Positions 1,187-29,529 of a DNA stretch of 64,000 nt are shown one piece after another. This DNA comes from an uncultured bacterium (GTDB taxonomy: Bacteria; Patescibacteriota; Minisyncoccia; Phycocordibacterales; PALSA-1337). The DNA lies in contig CAIQIZ010000021.1 of assembly GCA_903872035.1 (NCBI GenBank), positions 18,157 through 82,156 on the forward strand. Direction: 5' to 3'. The position numbers and the translations under genes are program-made. The notes beneath the pieces were generated by a model that worked only from the letters and a program-made list of their open reading frames with translations, was not told where the DNA came from and searched no databases. How positions within the stretch are numbered: the stretch's first letter is position 1; each line of letters begins with the position of its first letter.

Positions 1187-2476
1187 TTAGTTCCACTTAT
1201 AGCCTATATTCACCATGCCAAAATTCTTATCTTTGGAGAATACTTGGAAAGACTTCATCCTCGGAACATAATCGTAAGCGTTATGGACGTTATCACCATA
1301 TATAGCGAATCCGACATAATATGAATTCGTTCTCAGGGGGATATTTTTATAATCGACCTGACAATATCCATTCTTCTTGTATTTCTGGGTGTCGACCTCA
1401 TCCATAAAAGTATTGACCCCGAAAGCATAATTCCCATCGTCATTATATATTGCCAAGCCAAAATTCAATTCAGCGACTTCCTTGTGTTGCTTGAAATAGA
1501 CCCTGATCGACATATCATCTCCGCTTACAAAGACATTCTTCGGCTTACCATTCTTGTCGAGAAATTCCACACCCGTTATCACCACCGCCTTGCCGCCATC
1601 CCCGTCCCTTTCGGCATCCTCGGCTTTAGAACCTTTAGCGCCTTTTTGTTCTTTGATCCTAGCCATCTCTTGATCCCTCATAACCCTCCTCTCCTCATCT
1701 GACATATTCTGATAAATGTATCCGTTCGCCACCTCTTCAGCGCTGCCGATCATGACCACCTCGCCGCTACGGAGCAGCATGGCGCGATCACAATACTTCC
1801 GCATCGTGGAGATATCGTGAGTGACCAAGATGACAGTCTTGCCCATGTCTTTGTAGCGAACAAACTCCCGAAGACATTTTGATTGGAAATTGGAATCGCC
1901 GACTGCCAAAACCTCATCCATGAGAAGTATCTCGCGATTGGCATGGATGGCCACGGAAAAAGCCAGCCTGACTTGCATGCCGGAAGAATAATTTTTTATC
2001 TTCTGGTCAATGAATCGCTCTAATTCAGAAAATGCCACGATAGAATCGAATTTTTCATCGATCTCCTTCTCACAGAGGCCAAGGACGGTAGCATTCAGAT
2101 AGATATTGTCACGGCCAGAAAGTTCAGGATTGAAACCTATGCCAAGCTCGAGAAAGGGCGAGACTAGACCGTTGATATTTATCACGCCCTTGTTCGCGGT
2201 ATAAACGCCAGCCAAGATCTTTAACAAGGTCGATTTACCGCTTCCATTTCGGCCTATGATGCCAAAAAATTCTCCCTTTTTTACCTCGAATGAGACATCC
2301 TTCAAAGCGTAGAAAGATTCGTAGGAATTTCTTTTAAAGAAGTTGACGAAGGCGCTCCGTAAAGTGCTTATCTTTTCATGAGGGATCGTGAACTGTTTGA
2401 AAACGTTCTTAACAGAAATAGCGATGGGACGATCCTTTTTGCTCGCGGCTGAATTGTTATCGGTTGTTGATGTCAT
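1187..2476 (-). CDS. wzt: ABC transporter ATP-binding protein Wzt/TagH type (O-antigen/teichoic acid exporter) with a C-terminal Wzt_C-like carbohydrate-binding domain
   Basis: Walker A GRNGSGKST; ABC signature YSSGMQVRLAFSVA; Walker B LLMDEVLAVGD. About 170 extra C-terminal residues form a beta-rich domain typical of Wzt/TagH. Confidence 0.8.
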   Translation of the reverse strand: MTSTTDNNSAASKKDRPIAISVKNVFKQFTIPHEKISTLRSAFVNFFKRNSYESFYALKDVSFEVKKGEFFGIIGRNGSGKSTLLKILAGVYTANKGVININGLVSPFLELGIGFNPELSGRDNIYLNATVLGLCEKEIDEKFDSIVAFSELERFIDQKIKNYSSGMQVRLAFSVAIHANREILLMDEVLAVGDSNFQSKCLREFVRYKDMGKTVILVTHDISTMRKYCDRAMLLRSGEVVMIGSAEEVANGYIYQNMSDEERRVMRDQEMARIKEQKGAKGSKAEDAERDGDGGKAVVITGVEFLDKNGKPKNVFVSGDDMSIRVYFKQHKEVAELNFGLAIYNDDGNYAFGVNTFMDEVDTQKYKKNGYCQVDYKNIPLRTNSYYVGFAIYGDNVHNAYDYVPRMKSFQVFSKDKNFGMVNIGYKWN

Positions 2477-24904: not shown

Positions 24905-25252
24905 TCAGGCTATTTGAAGTTTCGACTCGATGCGGCGCAAACGCGGAGCATGATCTTTGAAAACGACTTTCTCGAGAGAATCGAACTTCACTTCCAGGCG
25001 TTCGATATCATCTTTAGTGGCCATATTTTCTTTGATCCCCGAGATTTCTTTTTTTATTTCTTTGAAACCTTTGTCGACTTTGATGACTAAACTATCCATT
25101 CCCTTGAAACCGTTGGCAACTGTAACGGCAAGACCAGAAACGGTAACGGCAAGGTCGTCAGTTTCCTTGAATCCTTTAGCGATCATAATAGCCAGATCAT
25201 CGATAGTGACTTTAGAATCATTTGAATTACAATTTGTTTGTTCTTGAATCAT
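24905..25252 (-). CDS. Hypothetical coiled-coil protein with periodic KGFKE repeats, immediately downstream of the DGR RT
   Basis: Repeated GFKE(T/I/M)D motifs; no family recognised. Confidence 0.35.
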   Translation of the reverse strand: MIQEQTNCNSNDSKVTIDDLAIMIAKGFKETDDLAVTVSGLAVTVANGFKGMDSLVIKVDKGFKEIKKEISGIKENMATKDDIERLEVKFDSLEKVVFKDHAPRLRRIESKLQIA

Positions 25253-25377
25253 AGATTAATTGGTTAGAAAGCTATTAATAGGCGAAAACGGTATAGGCAT
25301 ACCGACAGGCCAGTACATTTTATTCCTCAATAAAAAGATTGCAAGCTTACACATTTGCGTTCTCGTTTTGTAATAAT

Positions 25378-26361
25378 CTATTTTCGTGCCTTCATACCCA
25401 ATGATGAAACAATCTTATGTGTATTTCCATGCTTTAGCATTCCCAGATATGAAGCAACCGTCGCCGGCTTTGGATTGTTTAGGAGGGCCTTAATCATTCG
25501 ACGTTTTGTAGTTGTGCGCAATATTCTATGACTGGGAAAATTGATCCACCCGAGAAAATCGATACCGGATGAGTATGTCGCGATAGAGACTTTATCAGGA
25601 TGCAGATCCAGCAAGAGATTCTGTTTCAGAAACGCGCGGATATGTTTCAAAACTTCCTCGATAACGGCTCGGTCGGTATTCATGACAATGAAGTCATCCG
25701 CGAACCGTATGTAATATTTCTCCTTAACCTCGTGCTTCATATACTGGTCAAATTCATTCATGAAAATATTGACCAGCAGTTGAGAAGTCAGATTCCCAAG
25801 CGGCAATCCCTTGCCGGGGATCACCGAATCGAAGCTCTCGACGATTCTTCTCAATAACCAGAGCGTGTCATCGCCGACGTTATGTCGCTTTACGACCTCA
25901 AACAATCGCGCATGATCAATGGAGGCGAAGAATTTTCTGACATCGCATTTTAGGACCCAGCAGGTTTGACTATCATTTCGGCTAGCTCTCCGATATAGCT
26001 CCAGAAACCTTCTTATAGCTTTATGGGTTCCTTTTTCATTCCGGCATGAATAAGAATCGTGGATGAACAGCCTGTTAAAATATGGATACAATACCCGGTA
26101 AACGGCGTGATGAAGAAGTCTATCTCGAACAGTCGCTTTGTGAATCTTTCTAGGTTTTGGGTCGGAAATGTTGAATTCCTCATAGCCGCCGTGTTCGTAC
26201 GTCCTATCTTTCAGATCCGCGTGCAAATCAAATATATTTTCTGACAAATGCATGGAAAATTCCATAACGTCCTTCCGACCACTTTTGCCACATAAAAATT
26301 CCTGCCATGCGACAAAAAGGTTATCCGGCGATATAATTGTTTGGTATAGATCTATATACAC
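25378..26361 (-). CDS. DGR reverse transcriptase
   Basis: RT motifs: PKPRKIHKATVRDRLLHHAV (motifs 1/2). Motif 4 is GLPLGNLTSQLLVNIFMNEFD, with the DGR-specific [ILV]GxxxSQ in place of QGxxxSP. Motif 5 is YIRFADDFIV. Thumb motif GIDFLGW. Confidence 0.85.
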   Translation of the reverse strand: MYIDLYQTIISPDNLFVAWQEFLCGKSGRKDVMEFSMHLSENIFDLHADLKDRTYEHGGYEEFNISDPKPRKIHKATVRDRLLHHAVYRVLYPYFNRLFIHDSYSCRNEKGTHKAIRRFLELYRRASRNDSQTCWVLKCDVRKFFASIDHARLFEVVKRHNVGDDTLWLLRRIVESFDSVIPGKGLPLGNLTSQLLVNIFMNEFDQYMKHEVKEKYYIRFADDFIVMNTDRAVIEEVLKHIRAFLKQNLLLDLHPDKVSIATYSSGIDFLGWINFPSHRILRTTTKRRMIKALLNNPKPATVASYLGMLKHGNTHKIVSSLGMKARK

Positions 26362-26407
26362 ATTCTCTCATGATGCCCCCCCCCCGCAATCAAAAATACC
26401 GACAGTC

Positions 26408-26764
26408 GTGCATAAGCAAAAAGAAGCATATTCATTATGGGTCAGGCTTCATCACAATTTTCCCCGGACAGAACGGCTCGGTCTTGGCCGGAAAATAGAC
26501 TCGGCCTTTCTCGATCTCTTGGAATGGACATTTGTCGGCGCGTACCTGCCTCCTGAACAAAAGATCCCTGTTTTGAACAAGGCCATGACAAGGCTGGATA
26601 TCGTAAAGTTCTTTACGCAAATATCGTGGGAAAACAAGCTTATACAAAACGAGCAATACATAGCACTATCTCTCATGTTAGAAGAAATCGGTCGACAGCT
26701 CGGCGGCTGGAAGAAAGGCCTGCAAACAAAACTCCCCAACCTTGAGCCGGGGAGAAAGACTTGA
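26408..26764 (+). CDS. avd: Accessory variability determinant (Avd) four-helix-bundle protein, encoded antisense to TR/RT. GTG start proposed; the track ORF starts at ATG 26252 and would overlap the RT start
   Basis: EAYSLWVRLHHNFPRTERLGLGRKIDSAFLDLL...IALSLMLEEIGRQLGGWKKGL matches the Avd pattern (...FP..E...LG.QI.....LL.....EVGRMLGGW). The stop at 26764 abuts the TR. Confidence 0.6.
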   Translation: MHKQKEAYSLWVRLHHNFPRTERLGLGRKIDSAFLDLLEWTFVGAYLPPEQKIPVLNKAMTRLDIVKFFTQISWENKLIQNEQYIALSLMLEEIGRQLGGWKKGLQTKLPNLEPGRKT

Positions 26765-26768
26765 GTTT

Positions 26769-26876
26769 CGGGAGAACACCTGGTTGCCATCATTCCACCT
26801 GTTCGGATTCTCAACCGGATTCGCGTTCACGTTCCAGCCGTCGTCGTACCAGTTCACGTTGACCGCGCGGAGCACA
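26769..26876 (-). repeat. DGR template repeat (TR)
   Basis: 108 bp, 81% identical to VR. All 20 differences are plus-strand T in TR (A on the minus/coding strand). TR translates to Asn-rich AVNVNWYDDGWNVNANPVENPNRWNDGNQVFSRNS. Confidence 0.85.
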
Positions 26877-27188
26877 CCGGAGTTCATCGTACACGAGACC
26901 ATCCGCATCACCGCCCACCAAACCATGATGAGCTGAATCTTGTTCGGGACATCGAAGTCCTCCAGTCCCATGCACCAATTCTATTCTTTTTTGAAGAGAC
27001 CTTCCCCACTCTCGCGCGAGGCCTGACCGTCAACAAGGAGTTATACCCAACGCGACTCTCGAAGAAAATATCCTAAAACCATGACGCGGAAGCCATGTCC
27101 GCCGCGTGCCGCATGATTTCAGCATTAGTATATCACCCAATAGGTAATTCCGTTGAACCAGGTCATATACAAAAATTGACCCCCGCCT

Positions 27189-27206
27189 GCCTCCGCCAGC
27201 TGGCGG
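27189..27206. repeat. Perfect 18-bp GC-rich palindrome CTCCGCCAGCTGGCGGAG, about 87 bp downstream of VR. Candidate DGR homing hairpin. A second copy lies at 28273-28290
   Basis: Self-complementary 18-mer. Identical 17/18 copy inside the glyS 3' end. Confidence 0.5.
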
Positions 27207-27243
27207 AGCAAACAGAGGGTCAAAGTGTCCGAGGAACAAAGGA

Positions 27244-27993
27244 TCAGGCTGTCGCCGGAACCGGAGTTTCCGAGGGTTTGAGAGCGGAATTGCGGGAGAA
27301 CACCTGGACGCCACCATCCCACCCGCACGGATACCCAACCGGACCCGCGAGCACGCCCCAGCCGCCGCCGTACCAGCACACGTCGACCGCGCGGAGCACA
27401 AACCATTGATCTTTGATCTCAAATAGGTACTGCGAATCCTTGACCTCTTCAAAGATCTCCCTTCCTTCAAGGCCAACGTAGCTGAAACGCTTGTCATCGA
27501 GTTTCTTCACCGGTTGGGGGATGTAGCGGATATTCGCATACCCGTTAGTCAGAAGCAGACCAGCGGCGCTTTTGGGACCGTCCTGTTGATTCTCCATGTC
27601 GCGGAACATTTCACCAAGAGAAGAGACGGCTTTGGGCACACCGCCCAGCTCGAGGATAATGTCCTTGTCATACATGTACCTGGGCAAGGTGAAGACGTTG
27701 GGTGCCTTCGTCGGCGGGAGATCTTCAACCGTGTTCCAGAACCAATTCATGAAGTTGTTCCGGACTTCGCAGATCTTCACCTTAGCATTGCGGCTGGTGT
27801 CGACCTTGAAGTGATCCCTGACAACAAACTTGCCTTGATTCCAAGATTGAGAAGCGAGCCAATCGGTCAGAGGTCCTTGAAGGCGACCGGACTTAGCCGC
27901 ATCAATAATGTTTTGAGGGACGAGATCTGTCCGATTCCAGTTGACACAGGTTATGAGAGTCGCACCGGCGGTTGCTATCGTTTGATTATTCAT
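27244..27993 (-). CDS. DGR target (variable) protein with C-terminal C-type-lectin/FGE-like fold carrying the VR
   Basis: The C-terminus LRAVDVCWYGGGWGVLAGPVGYPCGWDGGVQVFSRNS is encoded by the VR. The TR encodes the same frame with Asn (AAC) at the variable positions. Confidence 0.8.
   Translation of the reverse strand: MNNQTIATAGATLITCVNWNRTDLVPQNIIDAAKSGRLQGPLTDWLASQSWNQGKFVVRDHFKVDTSRNAKVKICEVRNNFMNWFWNTVEDLPPTKAPNVFTLPRYMYDKDIILELGGVPKAVSSLGEMFRDMENQQDGPKSAAGLLLTNGYANIRYIPQPVKKLDDKRFSYVGLEGREIFEEVKDSQYLFEIKDQWFVLRAVDVCWYGGGWGVLAGPVGYPCGWDGGVQVFSRNSALKPSETPVPATA
27293..27400 (-). repeat. DGR variable repeat (VR) at the 3' end of the target gene
   Basis: Aligns base-for-base with TR 26769..26876 (offset 524). 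The mismatches are confined to TR-adenine positions. Confidence 0.85.
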
Positions 27994-28191
27994 TTTTGGT
28001 TTGCTAGGTATCGCAATGCTCCTTCAAATCCTTGCACACCTTGATTCATATCAAGCCCGCACAAGAAAAATCAGAAAGAGAAGTGGTTCGCCACAGCATT
28101 CCAGGTCCTATCTCAAGACCCAAAATGCCATGGCGAAATGGATATTTCTCCACAATTTGCTCTGTAAAGGAGCCCTATTTGCCTCCTTTTA

Positions 28192-29529
28192 TTATACCAC
28201 CTTTTGCTTCAAAAAGTCAAGTAGTTCCGCCTCACCAACCCTCTCCTGCTTACCTGTATCTCTGTCGCGCACCGTTACGCCTCCGCCAGCTGGCGGATTT
28301 TTTTCAATAGTATCAAAATCGATGGTCACACAAAATGGCGTACCTATCTCGTCCTGGCGGCGATAGCGCTTGCCGATGTTCCCGTTGTCGTCGAAGGTCG
28401 TGGCTGGGATTTCTTTTTTTATGGCCTTGAATATTTGCTGAGCTCTTTCAACTAGAACTGGCTTGTTGCGAAGCAATGGAAAGACAGCGACTTTATACGG
28501 CGCCACATTCGGAGACAATTTCAAATAAGTACGCTTCTCTCCGCCAAGGTCGTCTTCTTTGTAAGCGTCGGTGAGAACTGCCAGCAGCATACGATCAAGC
28601 CCAAATGAAGGCTCGATGCAGTGTGGGATGAATCTTTCTTTGGATTCTTCGTCGTAATATGACAGATCGACTTTGCTTGATTCGGAATGTTGTTTCAAAT
28701 CAAAGTCGGTACGATAAGCCAGACCAGACAATTCTTTTCGGCCAAATGGAAAATCGAATTCGAAATCGATGGTTCGTTTGGAATAATGAGCGCGATCGCC
28801 GTCCGCTACTTCCAATTCATGGACTTTGGATCCATCCAAACCGACATCGGCCATAAAGTCTTTTGATTCTTGCTGGAAATGTTCGAAAGACTTCTCCCAC
28901 TCCTTTGGGTTCACGAAATACTCTATCTCCATCTGCTCGAACTCTCGTGCACGGAAAAGGAAATCCCTGGGAGCGATCTCATTCCTGAAAGCCTTCCCTA
29001 TCTGAGCCAAACCGAAAGGTAATCGTGGATGCTGCGTGTCGAGGATATTTTTGAAATTAACGAACATGCCCTGAGCGGTCTCCGGACGCAGATAAGAAAT
29101 AGACGATTCGTCTTGAACAGCTCCAACGTGAGTCTGGAACATCATATTGAATTGCTTCTGCTCCCCGACCTTGCCGCCGCAATCCGGACACTTCCCCGCC
29201 TCGGCTAGTTGATCGGCACGAAAGCGATGTTTGCACTTGGAGCATTCAACCAGAGGGTCACTGAAACCGGAAACGTGTCCGGAAGCTTTCCAAACATTTT
29301 GGTTCATAAGGATAGCCGCGTCTACGCCGAACATATCGTGACGGCCATCGACAAAACGCCTCCACCAGAGGTTCTTGATATTATTCTTCAAAGCCACGCC
29401 GAGTGGGCCGTAGTCCCATGTTCCAGCCAATCCACCATATATTTCAGAGCCTTGAAAAATAAACCCGCGGCGTTTGCAGAGCGAGATGATCGCCTCCATA
29501 ACATCGGTTTTGTCGTTTGATTCCGCCAT
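28192..29529 (-). CDS. glyS: Glycyl-tRNA synthetase (alpha2 dimeric type)
   Basis: Class II motifs; C-terminal anticodon-binding domain ...GKRYRRQDEIGTPFCVTIDFDT...VTVRDRDT. Contains an in-frame palindrome-encoded NPPAGGG insert. Confidence 0.85.
   Translation of the reverse strand: MAESNDKTDVMEAIISLCKRRGFIFQGSEIYGGLAGTWDYGPLGVALKNNIKNLWWRRFVDGRHDMFGVDAAILMNQNVWKASGHVSGFSDPLVECSKCKHRFRADQLAEAGKCPDCGGKVGEQKQFNMMFQTHVGAVQDESSISYLRPETAQGMFVNFKNILDTQHPRLPFGLAQIGKAFRNEIAPRDFLFRAREFEQMEIEYFVNPKEWEKSFEHFQQESKDFMADVGLDGSKVHELEVADGDRAHYSKRTIDFEFDFPFGRKELSGLAYRTDFDLKQHSESSKVDLSYYDEESKERFIPHCIEPSFGLDRMLLAVLTDAYKEDDLGGEKRTYLKLSPNVAPYKVAVFPLLRNKPVLVERAQQIFKAIKKEIPATTFDDNGNIGKRYRRQDEIGTPFCVTIDFDTIEKNPPAGGGVTVRDRDTGKQERVGEAELLDFLKQKVV
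28273..28290. repeat. Second copy of the 18-bp palindrome CTCCGCCAGCTGGCGGA(T), in-frame inside glyS (encodes PPAGGG)
   Basis: Matches 17/18 with 27189-27206. The two copies flank the DGR target gene. Confidence 0.5.

Follow-up and report, generated by a model that had tools for sequence, protein, structure and literature searches.

In the reverse transcriptases (RTs) of diversity-generating retroelements (DGRs), an [ILV]GxxxSQ motif replaces the QGxxxSP-type motif. The Avd protein of these elements is a four-helix bundle that forms a pentamer and binds both the RT and RNA, and the initiation-of-mutagenic-homing sequence (IMH) is located at the 3' end of the variable repeat (VR). In the DGR of Bordetella phage BPP-1 the order is mtd-avd-TR-brt, TR being the template repeat. 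According to passages of a preprint on the Bordetella DGR (bioRxiv 10.1101/2023.10.23.563531), the element requires 20 nt of the avd 3' end on the 5' side of the TR and a spacer of 140 nt on its 3' side, and the Sp3-33 stem-loop, immediately 3' of the TR, binds Avd. The structured TR-RT spacer of the BPP-1 element is the RT-10 RNA motif in the relevant passage of Weinberg et al. 2017 (PMC5737381). DGRs of the candidate phyla radiation (CPR) were surveyed by Wu et al. (2018, NAR 46:11, PMC5758913), where the passages on gene order define Architecture B3 as TR-(avd)-RT, with parentheses denoting the reverse strand, assign it to 90% of CPR DGRs and describe the CPR targets as typically lacking a recognisable domain. 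A cell-encoded clade restricted to Patescibacteria appears as DGR clade 2 in the corresponding part of Roux et al. 2021 (PMC8144416), and the B3 DGRs of CPR bacteria correspond to this clade. The element analysed here is a DGR cassette found in a 64,000-nt stretch of DNA from an uncultured patescibacterium (contig CAIQIZ010000021.1, positions 18,157 to 82,156; "the window" below, in whose numbering all its coordinates are given).

Components and layout of the cassette

The cassette can be assigned with high confidence to the chromosomal CPR/Patescibacteria DGRs with the B3 layout, i.e. target(VR) - TR - avd (opposite strand) - RT. An earlier note on this DNA had described a complete DGR, and all four components were recovered where it had placed them (Table 1). 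Besides the RT and the Avd homologue, these are the TR/VR pair, with mismatches at adenines only, and the target gene, whose 3' end contains the VR.

The TR core (26769-26876) and the VR (27293-27400), offset by 524 nt, give an alignment free of gaps. Of its 108 positions 20 are mismatched and, as the note had claimed, every mismatch falls on a plus-strand T of the TR, which is an adenine on the coding strand (A to G in 14 cases, A to T in five, A to C in one). For 20 mismatches that all fall on the 25 adenines of a 108-nt core, the hypergeometric P is 1.8e-17; 20 of the 25 adenines are thus substituted in the VR. All 25 TR adenines are found at codon position 1 or 2, and the six in-frame AAC codons bear out the asparagine-rich TR frame described before. 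The homology extends six bases beyond the core (to 26763 and 27287), adding one more A-to-C change at 26768 and one non-adenine C/T difference at 26765. The two repeats share the ending CAGGTGTTCTCCCG, beyond which their sequences part (VR CAATTCCGC, TR AAACTCAAG); judging from this pattern, the 3' end of the TR probably serves as IMH*, as the TR counterpart of the IMH is called. The VR is contained within the last 70 codons of the 249-aa target open reading frame (ORF). A search of the 64-kb window with the whole TR and with its 40-mers, adenine positions masked, found no further VR.

The RT is recognised by Pfam RVT_1 (E 2.4e-27). Its closest solved structure is 8ub7_A (328 aa, E 2.4e-42), which we take to be the Bordetella phage bRT. 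The LGNLTSQ motif, which the note had called DGR-specific, aligns opposite IGSLTSQ of 8ub7_A, and GxxxSQ is invariant across 27 clade members. The catalytic D140 and the ADD triplet (221-223) are intact and the other invariant positions are all retained. At residue 220 the protein has FADD in place of the YADD usual in the clade, a phenylalanine shared by 3/27 and 2/77 members in two comparisons.

The product of the plus-strand ORF that separates the TR from the RT gene matches NCBIfam DivGenRetAVD (NF033474) with an E-value of 3.9e-15 and 56 bits, over profile positions 6-104 of 104, and Pfam bAvd (PF22296) with 35.5-36.6 bits. The source collections already annotate it as PF22296, and bAvd is matched by all 49 aligned clade members (best E 3.1e-17). 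By profile similarity, the ORF encodes a probable Avd homologue of the four-helix-bundle family that stays short of trusted thresholds; its homology to Avd, suggested by the note, was recovered by the profile search. The position of avd between TR and RT on the opposite strand was also confirmed, but its stop codon (26762-26764) overlaps the extended TR homology and does not lie 4 bp away from the TR as had been stated.

Table 1. Features of the DGR cassette in window coordinates
Feature	Position	Strand	Remarks
DGR RT gene, 327 aa, GTG start	25378..26361	-	Pfam RVT_1 and 8ub7_A matches
Promoter-like site GCGACA-17-TATAAT facing avd	26309..26337	+	consensus match only; inside the 5' coding region of the RT gene
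ATGATG (26370-26375), then C10 (26376-26385; G10 on the RT strand)	26370..26385	+	8 nt from the RT start
avd as called by pipelines, 118 aa, GTG start	26408..26764	+	NCBIfam DivGenRetAVD, Pfam bAvd
10-bp hairpin (26754-26732), then UUUUGUUUGC	26722..26754	-	terminator-like by scan; within the last avd codons
TR	26763..26876	-	25 adenines in the 108-nt core 26769-26876
Three-helix RNA domain directly 5' of TR	26890..26978	-	closing helix P1; hairpins P2 and P3
Perfect 18-nt palindrome, GC-rich	27191..27208	.	36 nt beyond the target stop, 79 nt beyond the VR end
Target gene, 249 aa, VR at C-terminus	27244..27993	-	no Pfam, NCBIfam or PDB sequence match
VR	27293..27400	-	homology with TR continues to 27287

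Read 5' to 3', the minus strand carries the target ORF, about 370 nt of non-coding sequence, the TR, the plus-strand avd and the RT ORF, which is the B3 core order (TR on the minus strand, avd ending at 26764 on the plus strand, RT on the minus strand). The note considered this an unusual architecture. RT homologues number more than 8000, and those with names are from Parcubacteria/Patescibacteria. When the relatives were scanned at one genome per species, at least 595 were found, and the best 80 of these were analysed as loci (L004-L083); the nearest ones come from Patescibacteria/Parcubacteria metagenome-assembled genomes, in line with the CPR association of B3. In 76 of the 80 loci avd is directly upstream of the RT gene on the opposite strand, and in three of the remaining four the sequence upstream of the RT is absent. 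The full VR-TR-(avd)-RT order together with adenine-biased TR/VR mismatches was detected in 62 relatives with near-identical spacing (TR end to avd stop: median 11 nt; TR end to RT start: 386-450 nt). Opposite-strand avd is the standard layout of CPR/Patescibacteria DGRs and not an exception. Because it is the norm in the clade and was already catalogued as B3 (PMC5758913), the claim of an unusual architecture is not supported. As far as the passages of Wu et al. (PMC5758913) and Roux et al. (PMC8144416) describe CPR B3 DGRs, gene order, orientation, host lineage and the cell-encoded chromosomal location are all shared with the window, the target lacks a recognisable domain in both, and there is no difference in layout.

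The BPP-1 element resembles the window cassette in its RT, the GxxxSQ motif, the Avd family, the adenine specificity of the TR/VR pair, the VR at the 3' end of the target and, as far as the preprint passages go, a stem-loop directly 3' of the TR (Sp3-33 in Bordetella). Unlike in BPP-1, avd in the window is found on the opposite strand between TR and RT. The window has a structured domain of ~90 nt 5' of the TR, whereas the same passages give 20 nt there and the 140-nt spacer on the 3' side for Bordetella, and in the window a U-tract follows the 3' hairpin. The window element is cellular and BPP-1 is phage-borne, and the window target is not an Mtd-like tail fibre, nor is its fold confidently that of a C-type lectin.

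Searches of the target protein against Pfam, NCBIfam and PDB sequences gave no match. In 57 target homologues the variable sites coincide exactly with the TR adenines, and the VR keeps its scaffold residues (W, G, W, V, A, P, W, QVFSRNS). Genomic neighbours of the cassette are glycyl-tRNA synthetase, M16 peptidase, NDK and an AI-2E transporter; the setting is chromosomal, amid housekeeping genes. The palindrome downstream of the target gene has parallels among the relatives, in which a strong hairpin is found 40-100 nt beyond the VR, usually with a T-run after it. It is likely a terminator-like hairpin of the target gene, judged by sequence and position, and a counterpart of the GC-rich inverted repeat found downstream of the IMH in some DGRs.

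The palindrome sequence CTCCGCCAGCTGGCGGAG is present twice, at 27191-27208 and, with one mismatch, at 28281-28298 (about 0.02 matches expected by chance). The copies flank the target gene: one is located just beyond the target stop, and the other is contained in the glycyl-tRNA synthetase ORF, at its 3' end. The latter copy is translated as PPAGGG and has T7 after it on the plus strand. CTCCGCCAGCTGGCGGAG could be a small palindromic element that was inserted in frame.

RNA structures on both sides of the template repeat

The most interesting material in the comparison is not the layout but the RNA elements found across the clade and the simple repeat treated in the next section. About 90 nt immediately 5' of the TR are conserved and structured across the clade; in the window they have a -10-like TAGAAT just upstream. 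In a three-helix model built on 52 sequences, 93% of the alignment cells are paired, as opposed to 31-45% when the partners are slid. Changes on both sides are seen in 21 of the 22 base pairs. The model has a covariation score of 0.77, compared with 0.18 or less in the slid controls, and the observed values were reached by 0 of 500 shuffles. The covariance model identifies the domain in the window at 26875-26978 on the minus strand (70.3 bits, E 1.8e-13). In 691 kb of sequence it produced 75 matches, all on the RT strand, just upstream of the TR and once per locus, and none elsewhere, the exception being L007 with a second match next to a second avd copy. More than 20 of the matched loci were outside the set from which the model was built, and altogether the domain is present in 74 of the 80 related loci. 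A scan of 25000-28400 against Rfam 15 returned no match at E <= 1. The RT-10 motif is likewise a structured RNA linked to a DGR template, but in the passage that describes it (PMC5737381) it is 3' of the TR, whereas the domain found here is 5' of it.

Locus L007 deserves a separate description. The extra 5' RNA domain, within 1758-2360 of that locus, has the best covariance-model score of all (101 bits). It is accompanied by a second avd homologue (2006-2311, minus strand) and, at 2347, by a G11 tract. The whole group is located ~1.6 kb upstream of the main cassette, and there is no second RT between the two. Here one RT may serve a second template unit. In the window itself, some pipelines call a 97-aa ORF at 26678-26971 on the minus strand, which covers the 5' RNA domain and the TR in the VR frame; very probably it is not a gene.

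On the other side of the TR, a hairpin with a perfect stem of at least 7 bp is found in 59 of 63 relatives (26% of shuffles), and in 56 of the 63 at least five T are present in the 8 nt that follow it. The outer pairs are conserved (CUC...GAG), while the inner pairs vary yet stay paired. The set contains 55 G-U pairs, and the stems are longer when folded by the rules of the RT strand (8.8 bp) than by those of the complement (6.8 bp). In 54 of 55 canonical cases the hairpin falls within the coding part of avd or covers the avd stop codon, and therefore the C-terminal tail of Avd is encoded by the complement of an RNA element. By analogy, the hairpin with its U-tract looks like an intrinsic terminator, a counterpart of the Avd-binding stem-loop of Bordetella, or both.

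Taken together, the sequence comparisons suggest that the template RNA would be a compact, self-contained unit of ~255 nt composed of the 5' domain, the TR and the hairpin with its U-tract. With its own 5' domain and a terminator-like 3' end, such an RNA need not run antisense through avd. The note had proposed that the RNA spacer between TR and RT would be antisense to avd. The geometry is correct, but the need for a long spacer is doubtful because the TR is flanked by the 5' domain on one side and the hairpin and U-tract on the other. Two further pairings were considered, one between the TR 3' GAAAC and the U-tract and one between the 5' UUGG and CCAN of antisense avd. Their partners are invariant, which leaves no possibility of a covariation test, and no claim is made for them. 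Neither the 5' RNA domain nor the hairpin within the 3' end of avd nor the simple repeat at its 5' end is described in the pertinent passages of Wu 2018, Roux 2021, the Handa preprint, Paul & Yao 2022 and Weinberg 2017.

A simple repeat at the avd/RT junction

The start codon of the RT (26359-26361) is separated by 8 nt from an ATGATG on the opposite strand, after which the C10 tract begins. Nowhere else do the 64 kb of the window contain a G/C run of at least 8 nt. Of 76 relatives, 68 have a G8-G12 run at this place and six others a dinucleotide repeat (74/76 in total). The 68 runs occur in 5,076 bp, compared with two in the 599,112 bp elsewhere in the loci, and one of these two is next to the second avd of L007. 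On the avd strand the repeats are of the types C8-12, (TC)n, (AC)n and (GA)n. Contigs L111, L115 and L117 end inside the G tract.

The conserved avd frame runs upstream of the annotated GTG at 26408 as far as the C tract. In that frame the tract always reads PPP, or (SL)n in the case of GA/TC repeats, and it is followed by 6-7 residues, a conserved LP[VIL] and then the position of the window GTG. Most relatives have I, L or V at this position and some have ATG. N-termini of the form M-x(0-16)-PP... were called in 31 of 91 database Avd homologues, and the nearest long homologue starts with MPPPQSKIPTV, matching the in-frame PPPQSKIPTV of the window. By this comparison, the GTG at 26408 is unlikely to be where avd naturally begins. 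At C10 the ATGs of the window are out of the avd frame; a tract of C8 or C11 would bring them into it, with MMPP(P)PQSKIPTV... as the N-terminus. An upstream ATG whose open frame runs into the tract exists in 68 of 69 loci, and the open upstream ATG is in the avd frame in 20, in +1 in 28 and in +2 in 27 (loci with two frames are counted under both). A possible start downstream of the tract, mostly TTG, is present in 30 of 69 loci.

The length of the tract differs within some populations. In the population of the window C10 is accompanied by C9 in one otherwise identical assembly, and in another population G6 (one assembly) is found beside G10 (three others; L108 vs L107), where both lengths keep an ATG in frame via two alternative upstream ATGs. 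At consensus level the length is uniform in three of five populations and differs in two of five, a difference to which sequencing or assembly artefacts could contribute.

Several explanations of the tract were examined. The tract may be translated, as poly-Pro, or may be part of the 5' UTR or of a promoter. That the avd frame is open through the tract in 67/67 loci does not prove translation, because the stretch between the tract and the Avd core is short (median 21 nt) and each of the remaining frames is open in most loci too (63/67 and 52/67). A role as promoter spacer, with a -35-like NGGYAR before the tract and a -10-like TAnnnT after it, is suggested but weakly supported: both motifs are present in 14 of 67 loci, with spacers of 14-21 nt. 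A TAnnnT no more than 4 nt after the tract occurs in 23 of 67 loci. A fixed programmed frameshift is rejected, since the upstream ATGs are distributed across all three frames. A hairpin right after the C tract is not a general feature, since a stem of at least 7 bp is found in 12 of 69 loci (6% of shuffles) and is absent in the window; it is a feature of a subclade. Inverted repeats of 7-11 bp, 0-2 nt after the C tract and differing in sequence, were seen in L005, L008, L010, L011, L014, L018, L031, L075 and L082.

The leading hypothesis for the conserved tract is slippage-controlled expression of Avd. Contingency loci of Neisseria, Haemophilus and Campylobacter are phase-variable through slipped-strand mispairing, and transcriptional slippage can rescue frameshifts at homopolymers. 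The avd tract is similar to contingency loci in its nature and place (a G/C homopolymer of 8-12 nt, or else a dinucleotide repeat, at a gene's 5' end), in having upstream ATGs in frame in about a third of the genomes and in differing in length within a population. It differs from them in that only consensus lengths are at hand here and that these are stable in three of five populations. A literature search for DGRs with poly-G or homopolymer tracts found nothing relevant.

Activity and competing explanations

Activity was assessed by comparing the VR between populations as assembled consensus sequences, in which minority variants are hidden. In a sister population (RT P0054, L088-L097), ten assemblies from different groundwater samples contain six VR alleles; they are identical outside the VR (246-372), and 24 of the 25 variable sites are at TR adenines. 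This is direct evidence that the DGR clade is active in nature, and with six alleles seen there, consensus comparison can therefore detect activity in this clade. The exact target protein of the window is found on 32 contigs, and the sole variant, K194Q, is outside the VR. The window population is clonal, with 0 single-nucleotide polymorphisms (SNPs) in up to 8.9 kb. For the window DGR, the data show that past activity is clear and that current diversification is absent at the consensus level. The note had held that an invariant VR across population data would refute its DGR reading. The VR is indeed invariant in the assembled consensus, but this speaks against recent activity and not against DGR identity. 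The frozen VR fits an out-of-frame avd. The link between them is not established, because in the active sister population the only open upstream ATG is also out of frame at the consensus tract length.

A number of results weigh against the reading of the cassette as a B3 DGR. There is one VR allele over 32+1 contigs and all assemblies compared, which come from several samples, and these assemblies are 100% identical across the cassette save for the one-base tract difference. Both Avd profile scores are under the curated cut-offs (80 bits for NF033474, 40 bits for PF22296); the Avd clade profile searched against PDB sequences found no solved Avd, and Avd alone gave nothing usable. A C-type lectin fold, which the note had considered consistent with the target, could not be assigned. 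For neither the TR RNA nor the RT did the minus strand of 26362-27243 yield a two-hexamer sigma-70 promoter match. It is highly improbable that the RT is one of a group II intron, a retron or a defence system and that the repeats are a duplicated gene fragment. The best NCBIfam match of the RT is a group II intron RT/maturase model, and no DGR-RT model was among the NCBIfam matches, but that score (136 bits) is far under the cut-off of 300. The reading is effectively refuted by the adenine-only mismatches, the GxxxSQ motif with 8ub7_A as the best PDB match, the adjacent Avd homologue and the same cassette in 62 relatives; there are also no intron RNA domains and no Rfam match.

Within the DGR assignment, the template RNA could instead be part of a long TR-spacer-RT transcript as in Bordetella, with a spacer of ~400 nt antisense to avd, which would make the element architecturally exceptional. 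There is no separate RT promoter match and the RT start is only 8 nt away from the avd ATGs, and therefore read-through of the RT from the TR promoter is plausible; in addition, priming in Bordetella needs 140 nt 3' of the TR, as the preprint passages report (bioRxiv 10.1101/2023.10.23.563531). This model is nevertheless unlikely. The layout is the norm of the clade and already catalogued, a terminator-type hairpin with a U-tract follows the TR in 56-59 of 63 loci, and a covarying domain is found upstream of the TR, where Bordetella requires just 20 nt.

A better case, though still a doubtful one, can be made for a switched-off or decaying DGR, which once diversified its target but has since fallen silent, either for want of Avd made from its natural start codon or by another cause. 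The VR is identical in all assemblies of the window population from several samples while the sister population has six alleles, the ATGATG before C10 is out of frame with avd, the MPPPQSKIPTV start of the nearest long Avd homologue corresponds to a tract two nt shorter than that of the window, and the phenylalanine before ADD in the RT is a minority variant. On the other hand, all the parts (RT, avd frame, TR, 5' RNA domain and hairpin) are intact, with scores similar to those found in relatives. The GTG at 26408 could be a start, as some relatives have ATG there, and the sister population with its variable VR likewise has its only open upstream ATG out of frame. Consensus assemblies would hide minority VR variants, and with a population this clonal little time may have passed.

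Returning to a B3 DGR with a compact template RNA, its mode of action can be outlined on the model of the Bordetella phage DGR. Transcription from about 26978 to 26722 on the minus strand would produce an RNA of ~255 nt, and its cDNA would replace the VR, recoding up to ~15 codons of the C-terminal domain of the target. The RT would possibly be expressed by read-through or from a promoter of its own. It is tentatively proposed, as an idea that has less than even chances, that the B3 clade as a whole shares two perhaps undescribed traits: a rearranged template RNA, with its 5' domain and a 3' hairpin that doubles as avd coding sequence, and a hypermutable repeat at the avd 5' end that gates Avd or the RT.

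The layout of the window alone is one more example of a class described in 2017-2018 and changes little. The comparison of 80 relatives provides a testable anatomy for the CPR DGRs, the least understood and most numerous DGR group: the probable ends of the template RNA, RNA structures under selection and a junction repeat that could time mutagenesis. If the proposal is true, a compact RNA of ~255 nt would explain how it is possible for avd to be on the opposite strand, and the hypermutation machine would be under a stochastic on/off switch operated by DNA or transcriptional slippage, with the C10 of the window reading "off", which matches its frozen VR. If the repeat is such a switch, this would explain the inactive look of many CPR DGRs in metagenomes, and the DGR would be a mutator that is itself under phase-variable control.

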